A stretch of 64,000 bases of DNA, from NCBI GenBank assembly GCA_016792805.1, contig JAEUHX010000087.1, forward strand, positions 76,955 to 140,954, given 5' to 3'. The translations under genes were made by a program, and so were the position numbers. Positions 19,844 to 40,149 of this stretch are shown one piece after another. Source of the DNA: Planctomycetota bacterium. Its GTDB lineage: Bacteria > Planctomycetota > UBA1135 > JACQFD01. The notes beneath the pieces are model-generated. The model did not search any database. It saw only the letters and a list, made by a program, of their open reading frames with translations, and was not told the origin of the DNA. Positions within the stretch are counted from its first letter, which is position 1. Every line of letters begins with the position of its first letter.

Positions 19844-20560
19844 TCAGTTCACAGTTGTCCAGACCTGGCCGTCCATCCCAAGCTTCGAGGGAAGGGTGTT
19901 CGCGGTCGGCTGGATAATTGAGTTTGTGACTCCGCCCGAAGCGAATGCGGCGGAGGGCGCAGGGGCTGCGACTCCGGTGTAGATGCCACCGACGTTAAGC
20001 ATCTGCAGAAGCTCCCCGCCCTGATTGGCAAAGAAGACTCGATTGCTCGAGTTCCCTTGGCTCACGGGCCAGGCGTAGGCGCACCAGGTTGCCTCGCATC
20101 CATCCGGGTCCGGAAGGTTCGCAGGATCGGCCCCGCCCGTGGCAGCCTCGGCAACGCCGAGACCCGCCGCATTGGGAAGCCAGATCTGGAACAAATAGCC
20201 GGAGCGCTGAACTCTCGCGCTCACGACGTTGCCGAAGGAGCTCGAAGCCACCGGCGGCTTCATCTTCTCCGTAGCGGAGACGATTTGTGTTGTTCCGTTA
20301 AATGTGCGAACAAATGCAGCGCCTGCGAGCTCCCCGAAATTGGCGAACTCACCGACTCCGTCGCCGTCCCCATCGATAATGGCGGCAGCCTTCGCCTGTG
20401 CTTGGCTCGACATCAGCTGCCGCAGGGTCGAGATCGCCGCCGACTCGTTGGCTGCCTGCCGCGCCGACAGGAGATTGGGAACGGCGAGTGCGGCGATGAT
20501 TGCAACAATCGCAATGACGATCATGAGCTCGATTAGTGTGAAGCCGCGGTTCCCTCGCAT
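19844..20560 (-). CDS. Type IV pilin / pseudopilin paralogue 2 (prepilin-type N-terminal methylation domain)
   Basis: ATG at 20560 with GAGG 9-10 nt upstream. MRGNRG|FTLIELMIVIAIVAIIAALAVPNLLSAR is a class III signal with Gly-1/Phe+1/Glu+5. About 55-60% identical by eye to 20688-21419. Confidence 0.85.
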   Translation of the reverse strand: MRGNRGFTLIELMIVIAIVAIIAALAVPNLLSARQAANESAAISTLRQLMSSQAQAKAAAIIDGDGDGVGEFANFGELAGAAFVRTFNGTTQIVSATEKMKPPVASSSFGNVVSARVQRSGYLFQIWLPNAAGLGVAEAATGGADPANLPDPDGCEATWCAYAWPVSQGNSSNRVFFANQGGELLQMLNVGGIYTGVAAPAPSAAFASGGVTNSIIQPTANTLPSKLGMDGQVWTTVN

Positions 20561-20641
20561 CGCATGATACCTCAGTTTTTCCGCCAGGCTTCTATCGGAC
20601 AGAGATGCTGCGACGCTTTCGCAGGTTCTTCCAGAAATGCA

Positions 20642-20665
20642 CAAGGGCGGGTAACCCCGCCCTTG
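20642..20665 (-). terminator. 10-bp perfect GC-rich hairpin between the two pilin genes (attenuator/partial terminator candidate)
   Basis: CAAGGGCGGG-TAAC-CCCGCCCTTG lies 23 nt downstream of the pilin-1 stop. The downstream T-tract is poor (GTGCATTTC). Confidence 0.4.
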
Positions 20666-20687
20666 CGCGAATGGAGCGAACTGTCTC

Positions 20688-21419
20688 TTACTGGACGTTC
20701 GACCAAACGTTCGTGTCCATGCCGAGCTTGGTGGTCGTGGTCACGGCCAACGGCTGATTGATCGCACCCGCGGTGCCGCCCGAAGCGAACGCAGCGTCCG
20801 CCGCCGGCGCGGTTGTGCCGTTGTACGGAGCCGCACCGTTATTGAGGCATTGCAGCACGTCACCCTGCTGATTCACGAAGAATGCACGGTTGCCGCTGTT
20901 GCCGCGGTTAATCGGCCAGGCATAGGCGCACCAGGTGGTCTCGCAGAGGTCCGGCGACAAAGTACCCACAAGCGACGTCGCACCCGCACCGCTCGCGTCT
21001 TCCTTGCTGCCGATGCCGGTCGCATTGGGCAGCCAGATCACAAAGTTGTAACCAGAACGCGACACATAACCGTTCGCGTCAACGTTGCCGAACGCTCCCG
21101 ACAGAACCGGGGGCGTCACCTTCGTCGTCGCGCTGATCACCTGTGTCGTGCCGTTGAAGGCGCGCACGAACGACCTGCCGGAGAGCTCGGCAAAGAAGCC
21201 GTACTCACCCGTGCCATCTCCATCGCCGTCGATCACGCCCGAGGCCTGCACCTGCGCTTGCGCGGAGGCGAGGTTGCGAAGCGTCGCGACGGCGGCCGTC
21301 TCGTTCGCCGAGAGGCGAGCGGACAGGAGGTTCGGAATCGCGATCGAGGCGATGATCGCAATAATCGCGACCACGATCATGAGCTCAATCAGCGTGAAAC
21401 CCTTGTTCCCCTTCTTCAT
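20688..21419 (-). CDS. Type IV pilin / pseudopilin paralogue 1
   Basis: MKKGNKG|FTLIELMIVVAIIAIIASIAIPNLLSAR. AAGGAG lies 10 nt upstream. ATGA overlap with the upstream TPR gene stop. Contains a DGDGDGTGEY loop and CETTWCAYAWP. Confidence 0.9.
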   Translation of the reverse strand: MKKGNKGFTLIELMIVVAIIAIIASIAIPNLLSARLSANETAAVATLRNLASAQAQVQASGVIDGDGDGTGEYGFFAELSGRSFVRAFNGTTQVISATTKVTPPVLSGAFGNVDANGYVSRSGYNFVIWLPNATGIGSKEDASGAGATSLVGTLSPDLCETTWCAYAWPINRGNSGNRAFFVNQQGDVLQCLNNGAAPYNGTTAPAADAAFASGGTAGAINQPLAVTTTTKLGMDTNVWSNVQ

Positions 21420-22336
21420 CGAACCGGTTCTCCTTTGCTTGCCGGCGGGATCTCGTTCCCTCCGGATTTCTTACCTTCGAGCATCGATGGCGCCCCTCCA
21501 CTGTGGAGAGTTACCACGAATTCCCTGAGGTCGTCAGGGATGACTCCCTGCGCGACCCACGCTTGCCAAACTTCCGCGTCGCTTCGCACCGCAGCAGCAA
21601 GCTGTTGCTTGAGCATCGGCCTCAGGACTCGGAGGTCTTCGAGCCCGCTATCGGCATTGCCCAGCTGTATCTTTAGCTTCGCAGCTTGGTAGCAAGCGTG
21701 GGGGTCCTCCTTTCCGAGGGCTGAAAGAATTTCCAGCGCCCCTTCCACCTGCCCCAGCTGCGCAGCGCGGAGCGCTGCAGAGATCGAGAGCTGCTTGTCC
21801 GGCCCCGCTCCGCGGCCAGCAGAAAGATATTTCTGCGCGGCCTCGTCCATTCGCCCGCATGCTTCCTCGATCTGAGCGGACACGAAGCAACATTTTTGTA
21901 CGGTCTCGGCGTTCGACGCGCTCTGCGCGAGCACGACCTGCTCGCGCGCCTGTTCGAGGTCGCCCGCCCTCAAGCGGCTCGCGGCGAGAGCCACACGGAT
22001 CTCGCCGCGTTGATCGGCGTTCGCCGCCAGCGAGAGCGCCTTTTTATAACAGTCTTCTCCAACGCTTCGATCTCCAATCTGCAATGATGCGTGCGCTTTC
22101 ACGAGCAGCGAGTTCAAGTCCCTCGGATCGCGGGCGAGCGCGCGCTCCGCGCTTTCGAGCGCCGGCGAGTAGAGTCCGAGGGAGAGCTGGAGTACGGCGA
22201 TGTCCGCCGGGGAGACCTCCTCGAGCCGCCGATCACGGGTCCGCCAGCCTCCGTAGGCAAGAAGACCCGCAATCGTGCAGCCGAACCCGTAGAGAGCAAG
22301 GCGCTTCGAGAGGGTTGGATTCGTGAACATCGACAT
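21416..22336 (-). CDS. Membrane-anchored TPR-repeat protein
   Basis: 306 aa. N-terminal hydrophobic span LALYGFGCTIAGLLAYGGW, then Ala/Leu-rich TPR-like helices. Its ATG immediately follows the pilC stop. Confidence 0.65.
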   Translation of the reverse strand: MSMFTNPTLSKRLALYGFGCTIAGLLAYGGWRTRDRRLEEVSPADIAVLQLSLGLYSPALESAERALARDPRDLNSLLVKAHASLQIGDRSVGEDCYKKALSLAANADQRGEIRVALAASRLRAGDLEQAREQVVLAQSASNAETVQKCCFVSAQIEEACGRMDEAAQKYLSAGRGAGPDKQLSISAALRAAQLGQVEGALEILSALGKEDPHACYQAAKLKIQLGNADSGLEDLRVLRPMLKQQLAAAVRSDAEVWQAWVAQGVIPDDLREFVVTLHSGGAPSMLEGKKSGGNEIPPASKGEPVR

Positions 22337-23569
22337 TTAGTGAGAGTGCGCCAGCTGCTCCTGGAGCTTGAAGATCGGCAGGAACACCGCGAGCACAATT
22401 CCGCCGACCACAAAACCCATGACTCCGATCATGATCGGCTCGATCATGGATGTGAGCCCCTTGACGGCAGCTTCGACCTGCTGGTCATAAAAGTGCGCAA
22501 TTTTCTCGAGGAGCGTGTCGAGGGCACCCGTGCGCTCACCGATCGAGATCATCTTGACCACCATGGGCGGGAAGACCTTGGACTGACCGAGCGGAGCGGA
22601 GAGCGTTTCACCTTGGCGAACGCTCTCGCGCGCCGAGAGCACGGCGGCCGAAATCACCTTGTTGCCCGCAGTCTGTGCCACGATGTCCATCGCGGCAAGA
22701 ATCGGCACACCGGACTTCACAAGCGTGGCGAACGTCCGCGAAAAGCGCGACAGTGCTACTTTTCGAAAGAGCGTACCGAAGACCGGCATCCGGAGAAGTG
22801 TGGCGTCGAAGAGGTAGGCGCCTCGCGGTGTCTTCTTCGCCACCATGATTCCGGTCGCCGCCGCAGCTCCAGCCCCGACGAGCAGGTACCAATACCCTTT
22901 ACAGAAGAATGCCGCATCCATCACGAACAGCGTGAGGCCGGGAAGCTCGATGTCGAGGCTGTCGAACACCGGCTTGAACTGCGGCACGATTCCGATCATG
23001 AGGAATGCCGCAATTCCGAGCACGAGCACGAGCGAGATGACGGGGTAGGTCATTGCGCTCTTCACCTCTCGGATCAGCTGAGCGCTCGCCTCGAGGTACT
23101 CGGCAAGGCGAACAAGAATGATATCCAGCTGACCCGATGCCTCGCCCGCGCGCACCATGTTTACATAAAGCTCAGGAAAAACCTGCGGGTACTTCTCGAG
23201 AGCCTTCGAGAGATCGACACCTCCCCGCACAGATTCGACCACGCCCGACAGCACGGCCTGGAAACCGGGCGACTCGGCTTGCTCGCGCTGAATCTCGAGC
23301 GCCTCAAGAATCGGGATACCGGCACCCACCATCGTGGCGAGCTGCCGAGTAAAAACCACCAGTTCCTCGCGCGTGACTCCCTTGCGGGAAGCCTTCGCGA
23401 AAAGCTCCTTCATGGTTTTTGTCGCATCGTCGCCCCCGCTCGAAACCTCCATTACTGTGAGGTTCTTCCGCTTCAGCTCCGACATGGCGTCCGACTTCGT
23501 CTTCGCAGAGATCGTTCCCGTGAGCGTGGCTCCTGCCTGATCGCGTGCGCGGTATCGGAAGCTCCCCAT
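22337..23569 (-). CDS. pilC: Type IV pilus / T2SS platform protein PilC/GspF
   Basis: ORF 22337..23704. ATG at 23569 (MGSFRYRARD) is preceded by AGAGGGA. Two T2SSF repeats (FTRQLATMVGAGIPILEAL... and FSRTFATLVKSGVPILAAM...). Confidence 0.9.
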   Translation of the reverse strand: MGSFRYRARDQAGATLTGTISAKTKSDAMSELKRKNLTVMEVSSGGDDATKTMKELFAKASRKGVTREELVVFTRQLATMVGAGIPILEALEIQREQAESPGFQAVLSGVVESVRGGVDLSKALEKYPQVFPELYVNMVRAGEASGQLDIILVRLAEYLEASAQLIREVKSAMTYPVISLVLVLGIAAFLMIGIVPQFKPVFDSLDIELPGLTLFVMDAAFFCKGYWYLLVGAGAAAATGIMVAKKTPRGAYLFDATLLRMPVFGTLFRKVALSRFSRTFATLVKSGVPILAAMDIVAQTAGNKVISAAVLSARESVRQGETLSAPLGQSKVFPPMVVKMISIGERTGALDTLLEKIAHFYDQQVEAAVKGLTSMIEPIMIGVMGFVVGGIVLAVFLPIFKLQEQLAHSH

Positions 23570-23712
23570 TGCATTCCCTCTTCTATTCGGCTGCGTAGTG
23601 TCTGGCGTGCGTGCGTTGCGTGACCGTTGCGGCGCGACAACCTGTCGGCGCCGGTGTGTACCTGTAGCTTGAGCGCTCCGCGCGTTGCGCGTCCCGCTCT
23701 GCACTCGGGCGC

Positions 23713-25134
23713 CTATGCCATCGGCATCGGGAGCGCCTCAACCGTAGTGCGCCCGCGTGCGAGGGCTCGGAAGGCGCTGTCGCGCATCCGAAGCCCCGGC
23801 ACGCGCTGGTCGAGTGCGCTGCCGGTGAGACCTTCCCGAATCGCGAGAGCTGCCGCCTCGGGAGGCGAGAGCACCTCGCTAATGAGAACATTCCCGAGAT
23901 ATCCGCTCGAGCATCGGTCGCATCCCGTCGCTCGATAAAAGGAGGCTGCCGCGACCTCGCTCTCCGGAAACCCGCCGAAGCTCATCGAGAGCTCGTCGGA
24001 ACCGACAGGCTCTCGGCAGCTCGGGCAAAGCGCCCGCACGAGACGCTGCCCCACGAGGACGGGCCGCGCGGCAGCGAGCTCCACGGGGTCCACGTCGAGG
24101 TGCCTCAGTGCGGAGACGGCGTCGACGGCGCCGCGCGCCGAGACCGCAAGAATCACGTGGCGGCCGTCAGCCGCGGCACGGAAGGCGCGAACCGTGCCGT
24201 GCTTATTATGAACTCTGCCGATGAGTAAGACATCGGGGTCGTGGCGCATGGCGTCGTCGACGGCGTCTTCCCGGGAACTCGGCGACTGCGAGCTGCGAAG
24301 CGAGATCCAGGACCAGTTCTCCCGCTCCGGAGCAGGTCCGATCAACGACACAATCAGCTTCCCCTGGACAGCCGCTTCCGCTCCCAGTGCGAGAAGTGTG
24401 GATCGCGCACCTTCCGCGATCGGAACGCCAAGAACGATCATTCCGCCATGCGGGCGTGACAACGCGGTCCTGAGCTCCTTTGCTACGTGCGGCTCGAGCC
24501 CCAGGGCGTCGAGGCCGTCGAAGCTCCTGCGATGGAGCACCCGCCCGACATAACGAATACCTCCGGACCAAGCGAGGATGTCGAACTCAATGTTCGACAG
24601 GCCCGTCGGCGTCTCGACTCCACAAGTGACTGCTGAGGGCATTGGCTGGTCGGGGCGGATCCCAGCGGCGCGGCGCAGCTGTGCTTCGAGCGCGCCCGCC
24701 GCAAGCTCTCCGAGAATCCGCCGCTCGCCGCCCATCCGCGCGGTAGCGACCATCCCAGAATTTGTGATATCGAAGTGGATCGTATGTGCTCCAGCTTCGA
24801 TCGCATCGGTGAGAATGTCTGCGAGTGAAGATGCTGGGGTCGCCGACGCCGGCTCCGCTGCCGCCGGCACCGGCGGCTTGGCCGAAGGCGGATCGGCCTG
24901 CAGTTCTCCCGGAGATGTCATCATTTGCTCATCGGCGAGGACTCGATCGAGTTCGTCGAGCAGCGAACTCGGTGCAGCGCTCGGCTCACTGGAACTCTGC
25001 GTCGGCGTCGGCAGGGCCGCCCCCGCTGGCTGCTGCACCAGGGGCGGCGGCGGGAGCGCCGCGGAGTCCTCCATGGTCCGAAACACTTCGCACTCGTCCA
25101 GTGCGCGCCCGATTCCCCCGCCCGGCGCGTTCAT
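23713..25134 (-). CDS. GspE/PilB-family protein with degenerate ATPase motifs (pseudo-ATPase); Zn tetracysteine retained
   Basis: 473 aa. The fold markers are collinear with GspE/PilB: AHTIHFD in place of ASDIH, DPDVLLIG, and CPSC...CDRC. Walker A is GVPIAEGARST (no GK[ST]). The Asp box is SLIGPAPE. Walker B reads DPDVLLIGRVHN, where Glu is replaced by Arg. The His box is DGRHVILAVSARG. ATGA overlap with the pilT stop. Confidence 0.8.
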   Translation of the reverse strand: MNAPGGGIGRALDECEVFRTMEDSAALPPPPLVQQPAGAALPTPTQSSSEPSAAPSSLLDELDRVLADEQMMTSPGELQADPPSAKPPVPAAAEPASATPASSLADILTDAIEAGAHTIHFDITNSGMVATARMGGERRILGELAAGALEAQLRRAAGIRPDQPMPSAVTCGVETPTGLSNIEFDILAWSGGIRYVGRVLHRRSFDGLDALGLEPHVAKELRTALSRPHGGMIVLGVPIAEGARSTLLALGAEAAVQGKLIVSLIGPAPERENWSWISLRSSQSPSSREDAVDDAMRHDPDVLLIGRVHNKHGTVRAFRAAADGRHVILAVSARGAVDAVSALRHLDVDPVELAAARPVLVGQRLVRALCPSCREPVGSDELSMSFGGFPESEVAAASFYRATGCDRCSSGYLGNVLISEVLSPPEAAALAIREGLTGSALDQRVPGLRMRDSAFRALARGRTTVEALPMPMA

Positions 25135-26204
25135 CGCACAGACTCCTTTCGGAGAAGATTATTGAGCTCCGTCTGGTCGGGTGTTGCCGAAAGAGCCTCG
25201 TCGTAGGAGATGAGGTTCTGGCGATACAAATCCGCCAGGGATTGGTTCATGGTCCGCATCCCAAGGCGCCCGCCGGTCTGTATGAGCGAGTAGATCTGGT
25301 GAGCCTTGTTCTCGCGAATGAGCGCTCGAATGGCGGGGTTCACCACCATGATCTCCGCCGCCAGAACTCGTCCTCGGCCGTTCGTGCGCGCAAGGAGCTG
25401 CTGACAGAACACAGCCTGAAGCGAGAAGGCGAGCTGAGTTCGAATTTGTTGCTGCCGATCGGCGGGGAACACGTCCACGATACGGTTGATCGTCTGGACG
25501 CAATCCGATGTATGGAGAGTCGCAAAAGTAAGATGTCCGGTCTCCGCGAGCGTCAAGGCGGCCTCGATCGTCTCGGGATCGCGCATTTCGCCGATGAGCA
25601 CGACGTCGGGGTCCTCGCGGAGCACGGCGCGAAGCGCCTGGTTGAATCCGTGGGTGTCGGTGCCTACTTCGCGCTGATTCACGAGGCAGCCCTTGTTCCG
25701 ATGGAGGAACTCGATCGGATCCTCGACTGTAATAATGTGCTCCTGCCGCTGCGCATTAATGTGATCGACGAGCGAAGCGAGCGTCGTGCTCTTGCCCGAT
25801 CCAGTGGCGCCAGTGACGAGGACGAGCCCCTTCGGCAGCGAGCAGATTTCTTCACAAATGCGCCTCGGCAGACCAAGCTTTTCGAACTCATGGATCTCGT
25901 AGGGAATCACGCGCAGTACGGCTGCGATGGAGCCCCGCTGCATGAAGACGTTCGTTCGAAAACGGCCGAATCCGGAGAACCCGAATGAGCAGTCGAGTTC
26001 GAGGTTCTTCTCGAAGCGTGCGATCTGGTCCGGCGTGAGGATCGAGTAGATCAGCTTCCGAGCGATCTCCGGAGTGAGCGGATCGAACTCGGTCAGAATG
26101 AGCTTGCCGTCGACACGGATTCGCGGAGGCGAGCCAACGGCCAAATGAAGATCCGAACCACCACGCTGCACGAGCAGCGTGAGCAACTCCTCCATCGAGA
26201 TCAT
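25131..26204 (-). CDS. pilT: Type IV pilus retraction-type ATPase PilT
   Basis: ORF 25131..26360, start MISMEELL at 26204. Intact GATGSGKST, DPDVVLIGEMRD, TGHLTFATLHTS and the PilT signature AIRALIRENK. Confidence 0.9.
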   Translation of the reverse strand: MISMEELLTLLVQRGGSDLHLAVGSPPRIRVDGKLILTEFDPLTPEIARKLIYSILTPDQIARFEKNLELDCSFGFSGFGRFRTNVFMQRGSIAAVLRVIPYEIHEFEKLGLPRRICEEICSLPKGLVLVTGATGSGKSTTLASLVDHINAQRQEHIITVEDPIEFLHRNKGCLVNQREVGTDTHGFNQALRAVLREDPDVVLIGEMRDPETIEAALTLAETGHLTFATLHTSDCVQTINRIVDVFPADRQQQIRTQLAFSLQAVFCQQLLARTNGRGRVLAAEIMVVNPAIRALIRENKAHQIYSLIQTGGRLGMRTMNQSLADLYRQNLISYDEALSATPDQTELNNLLRKESVR

Positions 26205-26246
26205 ATTTCCCCACCCCGGGTGCCGAGGAGCCTCCTCGCAGACCCG

Positions 26247-26300
26247 CAAAAGCATCGGACGCTGCGGCGGGCGCTCTTGAGCGCCCCGACGCAGCGTCCG
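26247..26300 (-). terminator. Long GC hairpin plus T4 tract downstream of the EF-G-like gene
   Basis: Minus strand: CGGACGCTGCG-tcg-GGGCGCT-CAAG-AGCGCCC-gc-CGCAGCGTCCG, followed by ATGCTTTTGC. That is 11 bp plus 7 bp with a small internal loop. It ends only about 42 nt before the pilT ATG. Confidence 0.6.
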
Positions 26301-26323
26301 CTCGGCACCCGGCGGCCAGAAAA

Positions 26324-28390
26324 TTATTCTTCGGCTTTGTGCCCGTGGGCTGCGGCCCACTCGGAAACGATCTGCTCCTGGAGCGTCGAGGGGACCTGGT
26401 CGTAGTGTGAGAACTCAAGGGTGAAGGACCCCTCCCCCGCCGTCACGGAGCGCAGCTGCGTTGTGTATTGCTGCAACTCCTTGAGCGGCACCTGGGCCTT
26501 CACGATCGCTTGGTCGCCCACGGAATCCATACCCATGATGCGGCCGCGCCGGGTATTGAGGTCTCCGATCACGGCGCCCATCAGCGCTTGCGGAATCACA
26601 ATAGTTACATCCATGATCGGCTCGAGGAGGATCGGCTTCGCCTTGATGAATGCGTCCTTAAATGCGTTGCGCCCGGCAATCTCGAATGAAATGCCGTCGG
26701 AGTCGACCTCGTGATACTTGCCGTCGTAGACCGAGACGCTCACGTCAATCACTTCGCAGCCCGCGATGATTCCCTTCTCGAGAACGCTGCGCATCCCCTT
26801 CTCGACAGCGGGAAGGAACTGCCTCGGGACGGATCCGCCCACGACATCATCCACAAATTCGAACCCGGCGCCGCGTTCGCGCGGCTCGACGCGGCAATAG
26901 ATCTCCCCGAACTGTCCGCGTCCGCCCGATTGTTTCTTATGTCGATAGTGCCCCTCTGCCTTGCCTCGGATTGCCTCCTTGTATGCAATCTTGGGCAGAT
27001 GGGTCGACACCTCGACTCCGTACATCCGGTGGAGACGGTGCAGCTGGGTGTTGATCTGCAGATCGCTCAGACCCTCAATAATCAGCTCATGGGTCGTCGC
27101 GTCGCGGCGCAGGTGGAGTGAGGGGTCCTCGGCGACGATCTTGCGCAAGGTCTCAGCAATCTTGCCTTCGTCCTCGCGGCGCTTCGGTTCGATCGCCCAA
27201 GAGACCGTGGGCTTCGGAAGCTCCGGCTTCTTGAAATGAAACACGACGCCGCGATCTTTGCCTTCAAGGGCTGGCAGGAGCGTGTCGCCGAAGTGCAGCG
27301 GAGCCTGCATCTTTGATATCGCAATGAGCTGGCCGCTCACGCAATGATCCGTCGGCTTCCGATCCTTTCCGAAAAGTGTAAGAATCCCGCCGATCTTTAG
27401 CGGCTTTCCCGAATGGGGATCGGCGATGGGAAGGTCGTGGTCGAGCGTCCCGCGGGTCACGCGCACGTAGTGGATCTCGCCGATCGCCTTATCGGTAACT
27501 GTCTTGAAGACGAATCCGGCAAAGGGCTCAGTCGTGCTCGGCGAAACCTGCACTTCCTTGCCATCGGGCCCGACTCCAACGTGCGCGCCGAAATCAACCG
27601 CGCGCGGAAAGTACAATTCCACAAATCGAGCGAGCTCGGGGATGCCAAGCCCAGTCGCTGAGTTCACAAAAAACACCGGTACGACGGTCTTGGCGACCAT
27701 GGCCCGGGCAATGGCCTTCTCGAGAACCTCGGGGGCAACCGAGCCCGATTCCAAGTAGCTCTCCATGAGCTTCTCGTCTGCTTCGACGACGCGCTCCACG
27801 AAGGTGGCGTAGAACCCGGCTGCCCGATCCCTCAGCCCCGCGTCGGCATCGGCCGCCGGCCGGAGGACATCGACGACCTGCTTGGCGTTCGGACCGAGCG
27901 CGTTGGGAAGCGTGACCGGAACACATCGGTCGCCGAACTGCGACTGAATCGCCTCGAGCACAGTGTCGAGTTCGACGTTCGGATGGTCCATTTTGGTGAC
28001 CACGATGGCGCGCGCGACGCCGGCCGCCTCGGCGCGTCCCCACATCGTCCTTGCGTGGAACGGGATCGTTCCAACGGCAGGGATACAGATCGCCGCGGTC
28101 TCCACCACAGAGAGTCCCGCGATCGCGTCCGCGATGAACTCGGGATACCCCGGGGTATCAATCATCTCCACGATGCCGTTCTTCCGCGGCAGGTGCAGCA
28201 CCGCGAGCTGGAACGAGTGCTTCTTTTCTTTCTCTTCCGGCTCGTAATCCGCGACTGTCGTGCCGTCGGCTACGGAGCCTTTCCGAGTGATGGCGCCGTA
28301 CGCGTGGGCCAGGGATTCCGCAAGCGTTGTCTTTCCCGAGTCGGCGGGGCCGACGAGGGCAAAAGTACGAACATCGATGACCTGAGCCAT
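26324..28390 (-). CDS. Elongation factor G paralogue with non-canonical GTPase motifs
   Basis: 688 aa and collinear with EF-G through domains I-V (YHEVDSD, LEPIMDV, DLNTRRGRI). G1 is GPADSGKTT. G2 reads KKHSF in place of RGITI. G3 is DTPGYPEF, with Tyr where the catalytic His sits. G4 is TKMD. AAGGAG lies 9 nt upstream of the ATG. Confidence 0.9.
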   Translation of the reverse strand: MAQVIDVRTFALVGPADSGKTTLAESLAHAYGAITRKGSVADGTTVADYEPEEKEKKHSFQLAVLHLPRKNGIVEMIDTPGYPEFIADAIAGLSVVETAAICIPAVGTIPFHARTMWGRAEAAGVARAIVVTKMDHPNVELDTVLEAIQSQFGDRCVPVTLPNALGPNAKQVVDVLRPAADADAGLRDRAAGFYATFVERVVEADEKLMESYLESGSVAPEVLEKAIARAMVAKTVVPVFFVNSATGLGIPELARFVELYFPRAVDFGAHVGVGPDGKEVQVSPSTTEPFAGFVFKTVTDKAIGEIHYVRVTRGTLDHDLPIADPHSGKPLKIGGILTLFGKDRKPTDHCVSGQLIAISKMQAPLHFGDTLLPALEGKDRGVVFHFKKPELPKPTVSWAIEPKRREDEGKIAETLRKIVAEDPSLHLRRDATTHELIIEGLSDLQINTQLHRLHRMYGVEVSTHLPKIAYKEAIRGKAEGHYRHKKQSGGRGQFGEIYCRVEPRERGAGFEFVDDVVGGSVPRQFLPAVEKGMRSVLEKGIIAGCEVIDVSVSVYDGKYHEVDSDGISFEIAGRNAFKDAFIKAKPILLEPIMDVTIVIPQALMGAVIGDLNTRRGRIMGMDSVGDQAIVKAQVPLKELQQYTTQLRSVTAGEGSFTLEFSHYDQVPSTLQEQIVSEWAAAHGHKAEE

Positions 28391-28460: not shown

Positions 28461-28500
28461 GAGAAAAAAGAAGGGTCCAGACTCTACCGAGTCCGAACCC
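28461..28500 (-). terminator. Rho-independent terminator after the OmpA-domain lipoprotein gene
   Basis: Minus strand: GGGTTCGGACTC-GGTA-GAGTCTGGACCC-TTCTTTTTTCTC. This is a 12-bp stem whose two non-Watson-Crick positions are G.U on the minus-strand RNA but C.A on the plus strand. Confidence 0.65.
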
Positions 28501-28596
28501 TCTTTGGGCACTGGGTCGAAGGCTGCTGTCAGAGCCTCCGTCAAGGCGCCTACCGCGGGAGCAGGGATTGAATCTCTGGCTGCGTTCAGGACGGGA

Positions 28597-32850: not shown

Positions 32851-35800
32851 TTAGTTGAACTGGAACGGAACCTTCAGGAATCGAACTCGCGGCTTCGAGC
32901 TGGAGGCCGTAACCGCACCGCCCAACGCAACGTCGAAGGTCACCGTGAACCGAATGAAGCGCTTGCCTGTGAGAATGCTCATGTCGGAGGTGCCAACGCC
33001 GGTCGAATCCTGGACCGCTGTTGGAACGATCGACGCCAGATTCACATTTCCAGTGGCGTCGGCATCGGCGCCTTGGAACTGGATCTGAACGGCCGCGAAC
33101 GAGCTGGTGCTCGGTGGCAGGAAATCGTTGATTTCGCCGGCGCTCGTGAAGGTTGAAACCTCAAAGCTCCGAGTCACCAGCTGCCACGCAGGAGTACCGC
33201 TCAGGCCCGCGTTGAGCGCCGTCGGATTCCCCGAGCTGCCGTTGTCGGTCGTGAGAACGATGTTATTCCCGGATTCGGTTGCTCCGATCACCGTGCCGGC
33301 GTTCGAGCCGACGCGGACGCGATCAAGAATCATCGTCTTGGGCTCCACCGCCTTCAGGTTTCCGCCCGCGATCAGATCGAGCTTCGCAAGTGTGATCGAG
33401 TTGGCCGTGACGCTCGACGCGTTCACAGTGCCCGACACGCCCACGATCGGTGCAACAAATCCCTGGGCATCGGTCAGGATCTTACCGACCGGGCCGAGGC
33501 CTGAAGCCGGGAGAGCGAGGCCCGCGAACTCATAGGTGGGCTTGCCCGCCGCCAAGGGAAGGCCCGTGTCGAACCAAGTCGAACGGACCCGGCTCTGGGA
33601 GCCGAACCCCGGCAGCAGCAGCAGCGGGGCCGGGTCAAAGTTGGCCGGCAACGGCTGGGCGCTCGCGGTACCGCCGCCGAGGAACGCCGTCTTATAGAGC
33701 CCGGTCGCGGGATTGATCGGCGCATGGAGCTGCACGAGTCCCTTGCCGCCGCGGCCGCCATGGCCAAGCCCCAGCGAGGTAGTCGGCGGAACGGGATCCT
33801 GCTGACCGGAATTCGCGCCGCCTCCTCGTCGTCCACCGCGAGCGAGAATGGTGCCGGAGGTCGCTCCGATGAATGCATCGATCGAATCGGCGCTTTGAAT
33901 AATGATCGTGCCGCCAGCGCCACCGCCAGACCCGCCGCCGATTCGGTCAAGGAAGATGGTGTTCTCACCGGCAGCACCATTGCCGCCGGAGGCAGAGATC
34001 GTCCCGGCAACCGAAACCTTGCCGAGAGCCTGAATCGAAAGGATGCCGCCGCCGCCGCCGCCACCGGCGCCCTTCTTGTCAACGGCTCCGAAATTGGGAT
34101 TGGTGATCGTCGTCGAACCAATGGCATTGCCGCCGCCGCCACCACCCTGGCCACCGAGCGGAGTCACAATTTCTCCGGTCAGGTTATCGCCACGCCCCAT
34201 CAGGACGACGAGGTCGCCCGTCGCCGCTGTGACCGGCAGCGGTGCCGAGAAGTTCACTGCTGCCAGATCTCCCGTCACGCTGGAGATCTGGCGAACCAGA
34301 ACCTTCGAGCGGAAGCACTGGGTCGGGTCCAACGCGGTCGTGCCCGTCGTGCAAGCGGCAAGTGTGTCTTCCCAGGTGCCCGCGGTTCGATAGATCGCGA
34401 TGAATCGACCGACATCCGACGTATTGAAAATCGGCGAAGTCGCGCGCACTTGAGTCGTGGAGCCGGTCGTGATGCAGGTGCCCCGCGTCACGATGGTCGT
34501 GCCGACGAAGTCATCGGTCGGAGACGTAGTGACAAAGTTGAGCGGGCCAGGTGCGCCGCCTTGAGGGAACGTCGCCGGGTTCACCGCACTCACACCCTGA
34601 GGAGCAATGCAGGAGCCGATCGTGAACGACGCCGTCGTGGGGCCGTCATTTCCCTTCTCGCCCGCCGTCGTATGGCTGCCGCCGCCGCCACCGGCCGGGT
34701 GGCGATCTTCGTTCTCAAAGCACTGCTGCCCGTTCACCACCGGCACGAGCGCCGACTCGCCGCCGAAGCCACCGCCGTTCAACACATTGAACGGACCGGC
34801 TCCTTGACCACCCTTCACGCTCGACTGGCTCGTCACCGGATTACCAACGCCGCCCGAGCCGCCGCCGCAGATTCCGGCGCCACCCGGCTCCGAGAACTGC
34901 GCGGCCGTGAGAAGTGTCTGGACGTCGGAAGCGTCGGCTCCGGTCACCAGGATCTGGCCGCCGGCGTCCACCTGCACCGTTTCATTGGCAAAGATCTGAA
35001 GCGGATTCAGACCCTGCCCGACGAGTCGACCGCCGTTGAAGACGCGCAGCCGGCGCAGGAAGATCCGCCCGTTCACAAATGTCTGCTGAACCGGGGATCC
35101 GATCGCACTCTTGAGGGTGAGCGTCGCGGCGCTCGTATCGACGAAGATCGTCTGACCGGATAGCACCTCGAGATCGTTATCCGTCGGCTGGCCGCCGAAG
35201 GAGAAGCCGGCTTCGAGGAATCCTTGGCTGTTCCACTCCGCCGCCGGGAATCCGAAGCCGGGGTTCTGGTCCTCGCGCGCCGCGGAATCAAAACTCTCAA
35301 CGATCGCGTCGTAGTCCGGAGTCGACGCAGTCTCTACGATGGGCTCGGTCCCGAAGCTCGCGGGGATCGCCGTTGGGAATAGTGCAGTCTCTCCGGTGAT
35401 GTCACTAAATCCTTGGGAGATCAGGAATCGGATCCGACGACCGCTCGGCAGAAGGCCCAGCGGAGTCACACGAACCTTGGCTCCAGCCGCCGTGCAATTC
35501 TCGATCAGCGCGACGCTGACAGGGATCGACGCGAAGCTCGATCCTGTCGTATTGAACTGGAGGCTGATGTTCGAAGACGTAATGTTTGTGGCCGCCGGAT
35601 CGACAGGCTGATTGAACGTCACATCGAAGTAGACGGACGGGCCAACGAACTTATTCGTGGGGATCGTGGCGCCCGCTGTGAAATCGCTTTCCACAAGGTC
35701 GCCCGCGCTGTTCGGCGTCACAAAAACAACTCGCGTGACCTGCGGCGACTCGTTCACCTTGGGGTCGTAGAACACTCCGGACCCTGCGGGCTTCGTCACG

Positions 35801-36297
35801 AAGGTCGAGGTCTTTCCGACGACGAGCCCTTCCCCCTTTGTGGAAAGGACCGTTGTCGCTCCCGCCTGGGTGCTCGACGGAATATTGATCACATAGGGGA
35901 TTCCGCCGGCCTGGAGCCCGCCGCCGCCCGTCGAAGACGGGCAGGTGGGCTGGAAGATAACCTTCTTTTTGTTGGCATTATCGAACGAGAAGGTTCCGAG
36001 GGCCGGCACCGCAGTTCCCTGCTGAACGATGGAAATCGACGCGGGCGTCACCGTGTCCGGCCGGACCTCTTTGTTGAAGAGAATCTCGATGGGGCGATTG
36101 ACCTCCCAATCCTGTCCGGGCTGAGGCAGGATCGATTCCACGAGGAAGTCGGCGCTGTCCGGCCCAGGATTCCCACCCGGATCGATCACATCATTGAACA
36201 AGGACGAGCCGCCGCCACCGCAGCCGCTCAGGAGGGCACTGGAAGCGGTGCCGATCAGCAGGCTGAGAGAGAGACGCGCGTTGCGGGAGAGGGTCAT
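32851..36297 (-). CDS. Giant surface lipoprotein B (paralogue of A)
   Basis: ORF 32851..36483, start MTLSRNARLSLSLLIGTASSALLSGC at 36297, followed by GGGGSSLFN. Ig-like domain (IEILFNKEVRPDTVTPASISIV). Poly-Gly motifs KGAGGGGGGGILSIQALGKVSVAGTISASGGNGAAG. C-terminal KRFIRFTVTF...VRFLKVPFQFN. Confidence 0.8.
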   Translation of the reverse strand: MTLSRNARLSLSLLIGTASSALLSGCGGGGSSLFNDVIDPGGNPGPDSADFLVESILPQPGQDWEVNRPIEILFNKEVRPDTVTPASISIVQQGTAVPALGTFSFDNANKKKVIFQPTCPSSTGGGGLQAGGIPYVINIPSSTQAGATTVLSTKGEGLVVGKTSTFVTKPAGSGVFYDPKVNESPQVTRVVFVTPNSAGDLVESDFTAGATIPTNKFVGPSVYFDVTFNQPVDPAATNITSSNISLQFNTTGSSFASIPVSVALIENCTAAGAKVRVTPLGLLPSGRRIRFLISQGFSDITGETALFPTAIPASFGTEPIVETASTPDYDAIVESFDSAAREDQNPGFGFPAAEWNSQGFLEAGFSFGGQPTDNDLEVLSGQTIFVDTSAATLTLKSAIGSPVQQTFVNGRIFLRRLRVFNGGRLVGQGLNPLQIFANETVQVDAGGQILVTGADASDVQTLLTAAQFSEPGGAGICGGGSGGVGNPVTSQSSVKGGQGAGPFNVLNGGGFGGESALVPVVNGQQCFENEDRHPAGGGGGSHTTAGEKGNDGPTTASFTIGSCIAPQGVSAVNPATFPQGGAPGPLNFVTTSPTDDFVGTTIVTRGTCITTGSTTQVRATSPIFNTSDVGRFIAIYRTAGTWEDTLAACTTGTTALDPTQCFRSKVLVRQISSVTGDLAAVNFSAPLPVTAATGDLVVLMGRGDNLTGEIVTPLGGQGGGGGGNAIGSTTITNPNFGAVDKKGAGGGGGGGILSIQALGKVSVAGTISASGGNGAAGENTIFLDRIGGGSGGGAGGTIIIQSADSIDAFIGATSGTILARGGRRGGGANSGQQDPVPPTTSLGLGHGGRGGKGLVQLHAPINPATGLYKTAFLGGGTASAQPLPANFDPAPLLLLPGFGSQSRVRSTWFDTGLPLAAGKPTYEFAGLALPASGLGPVGKILTDAQGFVAPIVGVSGTVNASSVTANSITLAKLDLIAGGNLKAVEPKTMILDRVRVGSNAGTVIGATESGNNIVLTTDNGSSGNPTALNAGLSGTPAWQLVTRSFEVSTFTSAGEINDFLPPSTSSFAAVQIQFQGADADATGNVNLASIVPTAVQDSTGVGTSDMSILTGKRFIRFTVTFDVALGGAVTASSSKPRVRFLKVPFQFN

Positions 36298-36501: not shown

Positions 36502-36510
36502 AGGGTTGGG

Positions 36511-39500
36511 TTACGGCGCCGAGAATCCGATGCCGACCGCCGACAGCGACGGAGCGACATCGTTCACGATGTCGGACGTGAACGTGAAGCGCATCTGGAG
36601 GAATCGCTTCGCATTCAGAAGCGTAATGTTGTTGGTGAAGTTCACACCTCCGCTGGCGCCTGTTCCCTTTGTGATCGGAACAACGCCGCTGGGCGTCGCA
36701 CCGCACACAACGCCGGTCGGAAGCTGCGGGATCGTTGGGAAGATGCCGCCCTCAGCCCCCGCGTAGAACTCGCCATAGACGTCAAAGCAGCGCGCGTCGC
36801 CCGTGAAGCCGGCTCCGGCGGAGTCTGCGCCGCGGAATTCGATAGTCGCGGATGTGTTGGTCGGCTGAATCGCGGGCAACATCACAATCCAGGATGGATC
36901 AAAGATCGGATTGTTGATACCCACAGTGGTCAAGTTGTAGAAGTGCGTGTAGACGCGCGAGACCTTGACCGCGAAATCGATCTGCGCCGGGTACACCTCC
37001 GGTCCACCGGGCGGCGTCTTGGTACCTGCGGGGCCCTGAGTCGAGCCTGGCGGGAAATAGCCGCCGTTCGGAACGAGGCCGCCAGGTGCCACATCCGGCG
37101 TAACCGTCTGGGGGGTGCCGCCCTGGTCGAGGCCGCCGGTCGAGAAGACTCGGAAATTGGGCTTCGACGACGAGTTCAAGGCCACGTTCACCTGGAAGCC
37201 GTTCAAGCCCTTCGTGTTGCTGTCCTGCGCCGGATAGACGCGGCAATCAAACAGAAGCGGCAGTCCCACGGAGGGCACTTGGTTGGGCTTGTAGGGATGG
37301 TCGACGGTGAGGTTGTTCGCATTCGTCGGCGGCGGAATGAAAGGCAACAGTGCGTAGTACTGTTGAGGATTGACACCGAAGCCGTTCTGTCCGGCGAACT
37401 TGCCGGCGCCGTACGAGCTGTCACGCCATGTGAACGTCGACGTGAATTTCGGGTAGGGGAACATGGTCACACCCGACGGGGAGAGGAACGCCGCGTTCGG
37501 GTTGATCACATATTGGCCGTCGTAGACGCGCTCGGGCGGATGATCGGCCGCCTCGAAAACGTTGGCGATGAACGAAGTCTCCTGGAGGCCCGATGCCGGG
37601 AAGACCGGCAGCAGGCTCATCGGATCCACGAACTCATCGGGGAACTGCCTCGAGTGCGCCAGATCGATTCGGAATCGACCGAAGAAGTCGTTCTGTACGA
37701 TTCCACCAAACGGCGTCCAGGCCATGCGCTCGACGTCAAGGTCGGTATCCGAGATCGAATTGATCGCCAGGTTCAGGTCGATGTGGCGATAGACAGTCAT
37801 CAGGCGGCTTCCGAGGTTCGAAAGCGGAGTCTGCACCGCCTGGTTGAATGCCTGCATCGATCCCACAAACACGTTGGATCCATCGGCATTTCGCGAGAAG
37901 TGCGTCGGCGGCCGCGGCCCAATGAAGCCGGCGGCCGGCTGCGTCACCTGTCCGCTCACCAGCTGCGCTGGCGGCGTCGCCTCGAAGAGCGAGTCGAAGC
38001 GCAACGAAAGGCCGCGCGTGCTGTTCGTCGCGGCAGCGGGATTCACTCGGAACTTCATCTTGAATCCGAACTGGCTGATCGGCAGCGAGTTGCCCACCAG
38101 GTCGGTCACGCCTGTCGATCCTCCGACGACGTAGAAGATGTAATCCGCGGTCTGCGGCGCTCCCGAATCATTGCGGTAGGGCAGAACCGGAATGAACTTC
38201 AACGACCGCTGATCGGGAGAGGACACCACATTTCCGATCGCCATATCAAACGCCTGTGCAGTCGTCGGCGTGATCTCGGTCAGTGTGGTCGGGTTCATCA
38301 CGACGCAGAAATTCTCGATCGAGTTGACCTTCGAGAGATTCACGGGCTTCGTGAACCGCACGGTGAAGGTCGAATTCGGGTCGATGTTCGTGAGCGGAAT
38401 TGTGATCGGCAGAGGAAGCGGCTGAACCACGACGAAGCACCCGGCGAAGTTGCTCATCGTCGCTTCGTCGTAGAGCGTCGTGAGAAGCGCCTGATCGGTG
38501 GTATTGAATGTGGACGCCTGAAGATAATTGACCGTCACTGTATAGGTCGGGTCGGCGTCTCCGATCGATGCCGGATCGATGGCGACGACTGTCGCGAAGC
38601 GGGTCGCCCCGGAACCGCCCTGCTGGATCGAATCGCCGACTCGGATCGAGATATCGCAGGCTGTGTTCACATAAGCGATCTTGATCGTCCGCTGGTCGAC
38701 CGAGACGATCTCATTCACCGTCATCGGCTGCGAGCCGATGATGCGCGGCGGAGTCGGGTCGGAGAGGAATCCCTGGTTCGCGTCGGAAGGTGCGCCGCCG
38801 GCGCGGAAGACACGCACCACACCGTCCCCCGTCGTCGTCGACGAGAACTTCGTGATGGAGGCATTGGGGTTCAGCGCCGATCCGTCCTTGCCGAGGATGA
38901 TGCGCGTCACGCCCTTTGCGAGGTCGTAGCGCGAGGGCAAGAACACCGCGATGTTGTAGGTGGCCGTCGAAATGCTCGGGGGAAGACCCTGAGAGTTCAG
39001 CGGGAGGGCCTGCGGGTTCATCTTGTTCCCCACCGCAATTGCCTCCTCGATTCGCGAATCGTCGAGGGCGCTGACCGTCGGGTCGATGATCAGCTCGCGG
39101 GGCGATTCGGGCTTGAAGATGAATCGGCCCTGGAACGGGTCGGGGGGCAATTGGCCCGACGAAGTCGCCGATCCGACGAAGAGTCGCACCGTGTCGGGGC
39201 CCACCGATTTGGGATTGATTGCCCGGTCGAAGATCAGGCGGAACGAAGCATCTCGCGGAACTTCCGTGAACGGCGGAACGCTGGAAGGCCCAGCCGTTGC
39301 GATGGAGCCGAGCGATCCCGTCACCTCAGCGAATGCCCGCTGGAAAAGTGACTTCGGCGCGGCGTCAAACTGGGTGCCGATCGTCAAAATCACCGCGCCG
39401 GTCACTACGTCCGATTGGAGCGTCAGCAGCACCGGAGTCCCGGTCGTCGAAGTCAGCGTCTTGCTGATTCCGACGTTCTCCGACACGAGCTGATCCAGGT

Positions 39501-39768
39501 AGAACTGGTCCGTCACGGTGACACCGTTGACGACCTTGGTGATGGGCGTCGAATTGCCGGCGCCGTCGAGGGCGCGAATGTCGACGAGGCGACCCCAGGA
39601 GAGGTTCTTCAGAGTCAGACCGGCAGCCGGTGTGTTGTTATTTGAGCCGCCAGCTGCGGGGCCGACGTTCTGATTCGAGGTGCCTCCGCCACCACAGGCG
39701 GGAAGAACCGCCGCGACCGTGGCGAGAAAGAGCGTCGCGATTCCAAGGCGCCCAACGCTGAATCCCAT
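36511..39768 (-). CDS. Giant surface lipoprotein C (divergent paralogue; Ig-like domains, no poly-Gly core)
   Basis: ORF 36511..40128. Best start is MGFSVGRLGIATLFLATVAAVLPAC at 39768 (GAGG 7 nt upstream), followed by GGGGTS. Ig-like segments (FRLIFDRAINPKSVGPDTVRLF and FTVRFTKPVNLSKV). C-terminal KRFLQMRFTFTS...AVGIGFSAP. Confidence 0.8.
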   Translation of the reverse strand: MGFSVGRLGIATLFLATVAAVLPACGGGGTSNQNVGPAAGGSNNNTPAAGLTLKNLSWGRLVDIRALDGAGNSTPITKVVNGVTVTDQFYLDQLVSENVGISKTLTSTTGTPVLLTLQSDVVTGAVILTIGTQFDAAPKSLFQRAFAEVTGSLGSIATAGPSSVPPFTEVPRDASFRLIFDRAINPKSVGPDTVRLFVGSATSSGQLPPDPFQGRFIFKPESPRELIIDPTVSALDDSRIEEAIAVGNKMNPQALPLNSQGLPPSISTATYNIAVFLPSRYDLAKGVTRIILGKDGSALNPNASITKFSSTTTGDGVVRVFRAGGAPSDANQGFLSDPTPPRIIGSQPMTVNEIVSVDQRTIKIAYVNTACDISIRVGDSIQQGGSGATRFATVVAIDPASIGDADPTYTVTVNYLQASTFNTTDQALLTTLYDEATMSNFAGCFVVVQPLPLPITIPLTNIDPNSTFTVRFTKPVNLSKVNSIENFCVVMNPTTLTEITPTTAQAFDMAIGNVVSSPDQRSLKFIPVLPYRNDSGAPQTADYIFYVVGGSTGVTDLVGNSLPISQFGFKMKFRVNPAAATNSTRGLSLRFDSLFEATPPAQLVSGQVTQPAAGFIGPRPPTHFSRNADGSNVFVGSMQAFNQAVQTPLSNLGSRLMTVYRHIDLNLAINSISDTDLDVERMAWTPFGGIVQNDFFGRFRIDLAHSRQFPDEFVDPMSLLPVFPASGLQETSFIANVFEAADHPPERVYDGQYVINPNAAFLSPSGVTMFPYPKFTSTFTWRDSSYGAGKFAGQNGFGVNPQQYYALLPFIPPPTNANNLTVDHPYKPNQVPSVGLPLLFDCRVYPAQDSNTKGLNGFQVNVALNSSSKPNFRVFSTGGLDQGGTPQTVTPDVAPGGLVPNGGYFPPGSTQGPAGTKTPPGGPEVYPAQIDFAVKVSRVYTHFYNLTTVGINNPIFDPSWIVMLPAIQPTNTSATIEFRGADSAGAGFTGDARCFDVYGEFYAGAEGGIFPTIPQLPTGVVCGATPSGVVPITKGTGASGGVNFTNNITLLNAKRFLQMRFTFTSDIVNDVAPSLSAVGIGFSAP

Positions 39769-40149
39769 CGGTAGACCTCGATGACGCAGGCCCAGCTGAG
39801 GAGATCTCAGCGGAGTGGGCGCCGACTGGGGAAGTGCCGAGTGAGAATTCGCGAGCTGCGCTAGGGAGCCCGCGTTCGGCGGAGTATTCAGCTGACGAAG
39901 TAGCGTCATCGTGTAAGCACCTGGAGCCGGATTCTCCGGGTTCCTGCCAAGGACGTGAACAAAAGCGGAAAACCTCGGGGATTCGTGAAGTAGGCACGCC
40001 CGCCGAGGAACCGCCGAGGCGGGTCCGCATGCGAGTTGCCCGGATGACCGTTGTACTCGACGGGAAATGCGCGGTTCTCGCGCGTCGCTCGTCGCACGCC
40101 ACAACGGGTCCTGGGAGCCCAGGATCATAGTTGCCGCGTGAAACTTCGG

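Follow-up and report, generated by a model that had tools for sequence, protein, structure and literature searches.

The 64,000-nucleotide stretch analysed here (the window) belongs to contig JAEUHX010000087.1 of a Planctomycetota bacterium (assembly GCA_016792805.1) and has a G+C content of 61-65%. Logan metagenome contigs identical in sequence to the window were also found. On its minus strand, at 19844-40128, the window harbours a block of 12 co-directional genes, in which genes of a type IVa pilus (T4aP) lie together with genes for large predicted lipoproteins. In the direction of transcription these are lipoC, lipoB, lipoD, the prepilin peptidase gene pilD, a gene for an OmpA-domain lipoprotein, a gene for a protein similar to elongation factor G (EF-G), pilT, a degenerate pilB (pseudo-pilB), pilC, a gene for a tetratricopeptide repeat (TPR) protein, and two pilin genes. 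Searches with Pfam and NCBIfam agreed with this layout and with the gene identities given earlier by a first-pass annotation, which had been made from the sequence alone. Ratios of non-synonymous to synonymous substitution rates (dN/dS) given below compare the window with the related locus L021.

Two prepilins are encoded in the block, and they are 60% identical to each other. Pilin 2 (19844-20560) has 238 aa, with the leader MRGNRG before FTLIE and an N_methyl match at E=2e-9; its start was set according to the identical contigs, and its dN/dS is 0.026, in a range of 0.03-0.06 for the pilins. Pilin 1 (20688-21419) has 243 aa, an N_methyl match at E=1e-9 and a weak match to DUF2950, whose cut-off is passed by the orthologue in locus L062. 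Pilin 1 is probably the major pilin, with a globular domain of the DUF2950 type. Both proteins match N_methyl and TIGR02532 and are the only prepilin-motif open reading frames (ORFs) in the 64 kb, in agreement with the first-pass annotation that minor pilin genes are absent. Neither minor pilins nor PilY1 were recognisable in the window, and no further prepilin ORF was present in the ~6 kb beyond pilM. The start of the pilin 1 gene overlaps by 4 nt the stop of the TPR gene (21416-22336), which encodes a membrane-anchored protein of 306 aa with weak TPR matches and a dN/dS of 0.13. The platform protein PilC (22337-23569) has 410 aa and matches T2SSF in two stretches (E=9e-67; dN/dS 0.011).

The retraction ATPase PilT (25131-26195) has 354 aa and matches TIGR01420 with 493 bits, against a cut-off of 319, and its dN/dS is 0.009. 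All motifs of this protein are intact, including Walker A (GATGSGKST), Walker B (DPDVVLIGEMRD), the His box (TLHT) and the PilT-type motif AIRALIRE. PilD (29554-30714; 386 aa; dN/dS 0.14) matches A24_N_bact at E=9e-29, and its match to Peptidase_A24 is split in two. Alignment with orthologues placed a clean insertion of 74 residues at residues 200-273 (29896-30117), directly before the catalytic motif GFGDVK. The first-pass annotation had seen a likeness to RNA-binding domains in this insertion. The insertion itself is clear, but its likeness to the S4 domain (PF01479) is borderline, with scores of 22.7 bits (window; cut-off 22.8) and 30.4 bits (L007) and no match in L008; only the 28-30 N-terminal positions of the profile were aligned. 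The distance from CxxC to MGxGD in PilD is 207-211 residues in the window, L007 and L008, compared to 130-165 in 14 other loci. The insert was found in the window, L021, L007 and L008, and thus only in lineages with the pseudo-PilB.

The pseudo-PilB (23713-25134; 473 aa) resembles PilB/GspE proteins in its T2SSE domain (PF00437, 101 bits, residues 105-466), in its position between pilT and pilC, and in a CxxC...CxxC motif, which is typical of PilB/GspE and not of PilT. In alignment with canonical PilBs, its Walker A reads VPIAEGARST for GPTGSGKTT and its His box AVSARG for STLHTN, GRVHN stands for GEIRD in the Walker B region, and the Asp box is lost. The four cysteines C370, C373, C405 and C408 are retained and invariant. 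No match to MshEN (PF05157) was obtained with the pseudo-PilBs P0001-P0003, whereas all canonical hits carry this domain. In place of MshEN, the N-terminus of the pseudo-PilB consists of a Pro/Ala-rich segment, and conserved N-terminal peptides have been gained. The PilB encoded at this locus in the sub-lineage is therefore predicted from its sequence to be a non-catalytic protein, which lost the ATPase motifs and the MshEN domain of the cyclic di-GMP type and kept a four-Cys motif of the zinc type. This is in line with the first-pass annotation, in which the sole PilB homologue was regarded as dead and PilT as intact.

A motif-less PilB without MshEN was found only in the window and in three relatives, L021 (86% identical), L007 (37%) and L008 (23%). 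Degeneration of the four ATPase motifs was seen in the window, L007 and L008, whereas L011, P0004 and P0011 have them intact. In all four pseudo-PilB loci pilT and pseudo-pilB overlap by 4 nt, compared to gaps of 14-58 nt in canonical loci. Between the window and L007 the identity is 88% for PilT and 81% for PilC but 37% for the pseudo-PilB, which evolves much faster than its neighbours. Nevertheless, its ORF is intact throughout the four lineages, its cysteines and N-terminal peptides are kept, and its dN/dS is 0.11, which argues that it is not a pseudogene.

At the same position between pilT and pilC, loci L010 and L011 possess a PilB with MshEN, and all four motifs were confirmed in L011; the pilB of L010 runs off the locus before the Walker region, and its covered part includes MshEN. 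Walker A and Walker B are also present in the PilB at the orthologous position in about 20 metagenome loci. The TPR gene between pilC and the pilin gene occurs in the window, in L007, in L021 and probably in L033, and is absent from this place in L011 and canonical loci; the L008 locus ends before this stretch. A second pilin gene is present in the pseudo-PilB sub-lineage, but also in the canonical loci L059, L060, L069 and L088. The dead PilB, the S4-like insert of PilD and the TPR gene are thus derived states of one sub-lineage. The first-pass annotation had taken the pseudo-PilB and the S4-containing PilD as defining the system, which does not hold, since at least 20 related loci have a canonical PilB, together with a PilD that lacks the insert. 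A literature search for pseudo-ATPases or degenerate PilB found nothing comparable, and a metagenome scan with the pseudo-PilB alignment gave no match; none of the three, pseudo-PilB, S4-like insert of PilD or TPR gene, seems to have been described before.

Other departures from a canonical PilB were observed outside this sub-lineage. In L062 (7237-9508) pilT directly overlaps pilC and there is no pilB gene, while the genes for PilD, the OmpA-domain protein, the EF-G-like protein, PilT, PilC and pilin are intact. In the PilB-like proteins P0009 and P0014, from other lineages, the lysine of Walker A (PVAEGRSSSYY and PVAGGRSATYY) and the Glu of Walker B are missing, and MshEN is kept. Degenerate PilB-like proteins may therefore have arisen repeatedly.

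The genes 5′ of pilD encode three large lipoproteins, whose lengths were counted from the starts that bear a lipobox. LipoD (30784-32586; 600 aa; dN/dS 0.086) has a Big_5 immunoglobulin (Ig)-like domain, and LipoB (32851-36297; 1148 aa) has tandem Ig-like domains (Big_5), a Gly-rich region and a beta-rich C-terminal part. LipoC (36511-39768; 1085 aa) gave no Pfam or NCBIfam match in the window. A paralogue of lipoB, lipoA (14219-17515; 1098 aa; dN/dS 0.079), lies outside the block and is separated from the pilins by oppositely oriented genes for TatD and a HEAT-repeat protein. The earlier count of four lipoproteins amounting to about 60% of the block has to be corrected, as lipoB, lipoC and lipoD are the three within it and together make up 42-45%. 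Lipoboxes (LSGC, LPAC, LTAC, MPSC) follow hydrophobic segments in LipoA-D and in the OmpA-domain protein. The lipobox Cys is invariant in the alignment of the LipoB family (A2) and is conserved in most orthologues of the lipoproteins, so that their prediction as lipoproteins holds; the exception is one of the two LipoC copies of L008, which has a signal peptide without the lipobox Cys.

No similarity among LipoA-LipoD was detected with BLASTP. Profile comparison with hhalign joined LipoA, LipoB and LipoD at 99% probability, and LipoC at most at 50%, via Big_5-like and C-terminal segments. LipoD corresponds to the N-terminal 400 residues of LipoB (99.3%), and LipoA aligns with LipoB over 764 columns (99.2%). 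Big_5 Ig-like domains are present on all four lipoproteins, weakly in LipoC, where six of eight family members gave a weak match. The proposal of one lipoprotein family thus stands for LipoA, LipoB and LipoD at the level of profiles, but is rejected for all four by plain similarity, and LipoC is linked weakly.

All homologues of LipoB came from Planctomycetota metagenome-assembled genomes (MAGs). A scan of a genome collection with the LipoB alignment returned eight loci and was dominated by Gly-rich patterns. An AlphaFold (AF2) model of LipoB, built from a 13-sequence alignment, reached a mean predicted local distance difference test (pLDDT) score of 65.6, with tandem beta domains that are well predicted at residues 50-455; the Gly-rich stretch is disordered, and the C-terminal half is rich in beta structure. 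Fold and profile searches against the PDB retrieved generic Ig-like domains only, such as those of L,D-transpeptidases, the S-layer protein SbsC and alpha-2-macroglobulin; the modelled fold would fit an elongated envelope or surface protein, without being specific for one. LipoC had no PDB relative in profile searches, and its single-sequence AlphaFold model was unusable (pLDDT 28). With 470 cluster representatives (241 at E<=1e-30), the LipoC family is large; it is locally expanded in L018, L019 and strain Pla133, and no characterised member of it was found.

Between pilD and pilT the block encodes an OmpA-domain lipoprotein and the EF-G-like protein. The former (28597-29343; 248 aa) has a coiled-coil linker, an OmpA match at E=1.5e-12 and a conserved lipobox Cys. 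The latter (26324-28390; 688 aa) possesses the five EF-G domains GTP_EFTU, EF-G_D2, EFG_III, EFG_IV and EFG_C, and scores 750 bits with the NCBIfam model for elongation factor G (NF009381; cut-off 583). Its motif DTPGY, in which Tyr replaces the His of DTPGH, is common to chain 7 of PDB 9k0z and all five orthologues. Since the protein passes the curated model and the His-to-Tyr change is a trait of the subfamily, it is an EF-G2-type paralogue and no oddity of the locus. Similar to other EF-G2-type paralogues (NF009381; PDB 9k0z chain 7 and 1wdt), it has five domains, DTPGY and the G4 motif TKxD, and it differs from them only in a conserved, optional position inside the pilus neighbourhood. The same two observations rule out a novel GTPase of the pilus system. 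The EF-G2-type gene is a conserved but optional neighbour, which is probably not part of the pilus system, and we found no evidence that its occurrence together with an S4-like module at one locus has a meaning.

Hairpins had been proposed at several junctions of the block. They were confirmed 3′ of the ompA gene, where an intrinsic-terminator-like hairpin (28471-28502) has a stem of 14 bp followed by a T run, 3′ of the EF-G-like gene, and 3′ of pilin 1, where a 13-bp G+C hairpin is strong; the hairpin between lipoB and lipoD, however, did not exceed shuffled sequence in stability (z -0.98). The 128 nt that separate the EF-G-like gene from pilT (26196-26323) form one long near-perfect hairpin with a minimum free energy of -84.3 kcal/mol (z -6.2), a stability that none of 200 shuffles reached. 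This hairpin is far bigger than a usual terminator and lacks a clear T run after it; it may act as a 5′ leader that regulates pilT, or it may be a repeat element.

A second pilus module lies 18 kb away, at 57868-63028 on the minus strand, adjoining RNase E/G. As proposed earlier, it encodes the secretin, PilO, a PilN-like ORF and PilM. Matches to Pfam Secretin, PilO and PilM_2 are clear, and the PilN-like ORF has no Pfam match. PilO (59878-61281; 467 aa) consists of a PilO domain at residues 41-193, a long helical middle and a C-terminal part with a weak T2SSB match (E=8.5e-5), which could represent the missing PilP-like domain that contacts the secretin. A PilF/Tgl pilotin was not recognisable in the window.

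The gene order of the block recurs in at least 25 MAG or metagenome loci as pyrB, lipoC, lipoB, lipoD, pilD, (ompA), (EF-G-like), pilT, pilB, pilC, pilin and tatD. These include L007, L008, L010, L011 and L021, the GTDB representatives L013-L015, L018 and L019, and 13 JGI loci spanning pilD to pilT. To the most distant loci the window proteins are 60-63% (PilT), 53-56% (PyrB), 40% (EF-G-like) and 28-33% (lipoproteins) identical. In every related locus that covers this side, lipoC, lipoB and lipoD lie 5′ of pilD, and the synteny that the first-pass annotation had proposed as a check was therefore present down to 28-33% identity. The distance from lipoD to pilD ranges from -4 to 150 nt, with an overlap of the lipoD stop and the pilD start in L011. 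The gene pyrB is always upstream of lipoC, at a distance of 380-750 nt, tatD always follows the pilins, and the conserved synteny also includes RNase E/G next to the secretin. Order and orientation of the three lipoprotein genes are kept though the flanks are rearranged, as the genes 5′ of pyrB encode a GFO protein, LpxC and BamA in the window and Obg and CoaX in L010 and L011. Genes similar to lipoA follow tatD in L027, L045, L060, L063, L088 and L093.

The OmpA-domain and EF-G-like genes are less constant. Seven of the 13 JGI loci have both, four have OmpA alone, one has the EF-G-like gene alone and one has neither. The EF-G-like gene is absent from this place in L027, L052 and L058-L060 (5/13 JGI loci), and L011 lacks the OmpA gene. 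Strain Poly30 has no EF-G-like gene at its pilus cluster (bioRxiv 10.1101/817700). Because they are variably present, neither is a core part, and the earlier proposal that both are components of the system is not supported.

A comparable cluster is listed under twitching for the Saltatorellota strains Poly30 (Saltatorellus ferox), Pla133 and Pla163 in the supplementary tables of Wiegand et al. 2019 (bioRxiv 10.1101/817700). Saltatorellus is placed in Planctomycetota by NCBI. The strains share with the window TatD, PilA-like, PilC, PilB, PilT/U-like, EF-G-like, OmpA-like and PilD proteins, three to seven hypothetical proteins and aspartate carbamoyltransferase, as well as the nearby genes for RNase E/G, PilQ, PilO, a hypothetical protein and PilM. 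PilN, PilP, PilF and minor pilins are given there as not found, too. In the strain Pla133 tables an HPr-like protein and a phosphotransferase/anion transporter protein directly follow PilM, and in the ~6 kb beyond the window's pilM (L022:263-6856, to the contig end) the genes encode HPr, PtsN (EIIA(Ntr) of the phosphotransferase system), HPF, TruA, RpoN, RecR, YbaB and DnaX.

There are also differences from the cultured strains. The PilB listed for them matches TIGR02538 and T2SSE_N, whereas the PilB of the window has no motifs and no such N-terminal domain. The window adds the S4-like insert of PilD, the TPR gene between pilC and the pilin gene, and a second pilin, and the housekeeping genes between pyrB and RNase E/G are not the same. 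Overall, the gene order of the window follows the pattern of the Saltatorellota-type pilus neighbourhood, and this is a match of gene order, not of marker phylogeny. The hypothetical proteins, which correspond to the lipoproteins here, are not discussed in the Saltatorellota description (bioRxiv 10.1101/817700). In this light, the candidate novel envelope system of the first-pass annotation is better described as a lineage-typical T4aP neighbourhood, with a gene order already listed for cultured Saltatorellota.

Similar to the canonical T4aP of Pseudomonas aeruginosa and Myxococcus xanthus, the window encodes prepilins with a short leader and F+1/E+5, PilD, PilC, PilT (AIRNLIRE-type), PilM, PilO and a secretin. 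It differs from them in having no catalytic PilB at the locus and no recognisable minor pilins, PilY1 or PilF/Tgl. Further differences are the pilins of about 235 residues with a DUF2950-type head, the fusion of PilO to a T2SSB/PilP-like domain, and the large lipoprotein genes 5′ of pilD. None of the ORFs of the block or the secretin module has a Pfam family of GspC/L/M or of the pseudopilins GspG-K. The absence of these parts and of a pseudopilin set, together with the presence of PilT, argues that the system is not a type II secretion system (T2SS).

Since the gene order recurs in the relatives and in the Saltatorellota tables, we regard the block as the T4aP neighbourhood of a widespread Planctomycetota lineage to which the cultured Saltatorellota belong, with the lipoproteins as accessories of the pilus, a non-catalytic pseudo-PilB and an extension ATPase encoded elsewhere; we give this reading a probability of about 60%. 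The strong purifying selection on the pilins, PilD, PilC and PilT, in a genome that also encodes PilM, PilO and the secretin, indicates that the pilus is in use. The genes of the lineage-specific, Ig-like-rich LipoC, LipoB and LipoD form a conserved unit with pilD, which is probably co-transcribed. They may act as envelope or surface accessories of the pilus, standing in for functions of the unrecognised pilotin, PilP, PilY1 or minor pilins, or alternatively as adhesins or coat proteins. The pseudo-PilB could act at the PilC/PilM/PilT base as a partner with a structural or regulatory role, and ATP-driven extension would be carried out by another ATPase of the PilB/GspE family encoded outside the window. 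The S4-like insert of PilD and the extra TPR gene have the same sub-lineage origin and may belong to the same remodelling, while the EF-G2-type gene and pyrB would be bystanders.

Several observations weigh against this reading. The tie between lipoproteins and pilus consists of conserved adjacency, and this is shared by the housekeeping genes pyrB and tatD. A structural tie of the lipoproteins to pili is missing, because the matches of LipoB are generic and LipoC gave no usable model. Paralogues of the LipoA/B/D family were found away from pilus genes in L016 and L017. No catalytic PilB is encoded in the 64-kb window or in the ~6 kb of contig beyond pilM. In a search for a second canonical PilB with the L011 PilB as query, ten matches from among the best 120 of more than 8000 were compared by accession number with proteins of the relevant MAGs, and none of the ten fell in their range. 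Moreover, the lineages with a pseudo-PilB form one clade, so the co-occurrence of dead PilB, S4-like insert and TPR gene counts as a single event.

With the lipoproteins, it is also possible, though somewhat less probable, that LipoA-D are general surface-coat or adhesin lipoproteins and stand as bystanders beside an ordinary T4aP locus in a slowly rearranging neighbourhood. The synteny shared with pyrB, tatD and RNase E/G, to which the HEAT-repeat gene can be added, indicates that the adjacency does partly reflect such slow rearrangement, and the paralogues in non-pilus contexts (L016, L017), the position of lipoA behind the opposite-strand tatD and HEAT genes, the size and local paralogue expansions of the LipoC family, and the fold matches to SbsC and other Ig-domain proteins all agree with it. 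Against bystanders speak the pairing of lipoD with pilD, which is seen in every covering locus to about 29% identity with short or overlapping junctions, in contrast to the 380-750 nt between pyrB and lipoC, and the survival of the order and orientation of the trio when the flanks are rearranged. The link of the lipoproteins to pilD, as judged from this adjacency, appears to be the best supported one in the block. In the model of the first-pass annotation, a type IV filament machine secretes, displays or moves the giant lipoproteins, with the OmpA-domain protein as peptidoglycan anchor and the EF-G-like protein as a component. The conserved co-location of lipoC, lipoB and lipoD with pilD and the pilus genes, and a conserved lipobox that suggests an envelope location, are compatible with such a machine, but nothing was found that speaks for a role in secretion or display. 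The EF-G-like and OmpA genes are dispensable in the neighbourhood, the former encodes an EF-G2-type factor of the standard kind, the atypical motor occurs in one sub-lineage only, in contrast to the lineage-wide lipoproteins, and there is no sign of T2SS-like substrates or GspC/L/M-type parts. Lipoproteins also use their own export route (Sec, Lgt/Lsp, Lol), and we consider this model quite improbable.

The dead PilB allows two further readings of the motor. The motor might work with no catalytic PilB at all, so that PilT, alone or with the pseudo-PilB as stator or adaptor, drives both extension and retraction, and the TPR protein and the S4-like module of PilD may then take part; in the L062 lineage PilT would do this with no PilB of any kind. 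Selection on a pseudo-PilB that is translationally coupled to pilT in all four lineages, the lack of a second PilB within the 64 kb and ~6 kb of extra contig, and locus L062, where pilin, PilC, PilD and PilT are intact without any PilB, would be consistent with this. A bifunctional ATPase for extension and retraction has been described for Tad pili with CpaF of Caulobacter (Ellison et al. 2019, as cited in PMC11656802). CpaF belongs to the Tad/T4c branch, however, whereas the sole active ATPase at the present locus is a PilT-type T4a retraction motor, and extension by it would be an analogy. The PilT of the window has no unusual sequence feature, and we know of no T4aP that extends without PilB. 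In addition, T2SSE-family genes do occur away from the pilT-pilB-pilC unit, since cultured Saltatorellota, L010 and L014 have a second ATPase of this family next to obg. For these reasons a PilT-only motor is unlikely. Even less can be said for a decaying locus, in which the dead PilB would mark a function-less pilus turning into pseudogenes. All catalytic motifs of PilB are lost, and PilB is 37% and 23% identical where PilT keeps 88% and 82%, but all genes are intact ORFs in four lineages, and the dN/dS values, which are 0.009-0.06 across PilT, PilC and the pilins and 0.11 in the pseudo-PilB, contradict decay. Decay was therefore rejected, and the T4aP neighbourhood with lipoprotein accessories and an extension ATPase elsewhere remains our preferred reading.

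The obg-adjacent ATPase belongs to the PilT/PilU family. It is encoded in relatives with a canonical PilB (L010:462-1760 and L014:166-1191), is 38% identical to the PilT of the cluster and lacks the AIRNLIRE motif. It is present in cultured strains too, and is not found in the window, where other housekeeping genes take the place of this segment.

Between the two pilus modules the window encodes PyrB, a GFO/IDH oxidoreductase, an LpxC-FabZ fusion, BamA, DnaB, Pth, L25, Prs and GlmU. The ORF at 40515-42158 (minus strand) encodes the catalytic chain of aspartate carbamoyltransferase with a C-terminal metal-binding PyrI_C domain (E=1.6e-8), as is also the case in L008 and L011, and looks like a fusion of PyrB with the zinc domain of PyrI. 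A single ORF of 447 aa at 42949-44292 (minus strand) joins LpxC and a FabA/FabZ-like dehydratase. On the other side of the block, the region 4001-10000 shows a strong positive AT skew on the plus strand (0.16-0.33) over minus-strand genes for multi-pass membrane proteins, which include a weak match to a PMT-like glycosyltransferase and a Na/sulfate-citrate symporter. T-rich codons for hydrophobic residues probably cause this skew through base composition. The ORF at 1920-3605 (minus strand; 561 aa) has a weak C-terminal match to Tox-REase-9, a toxin of the restriction-endonuclease fold (E=1.4e-4, below the cut-off).

In type IVa pili, PilB is considered indispensable as the motor of extension. 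A dead PilB that is kept by selection and coupled to pilT points either to a non-enzymatic role of the PilB scaffold at the base of the pilus or to extension that is powered in another way, and the relative without pilB at this locus (L062) sharpens the question of how extension is powered. If a normal PilB is encoded elsewhere in the genome, the finding would shrink to a lineage-specific pseudoenzyme. Apart from the motor, three conserved and uncharacterised lipoprotein families that travel with pilD are now named and bounded, and their role can be tested by genetics.

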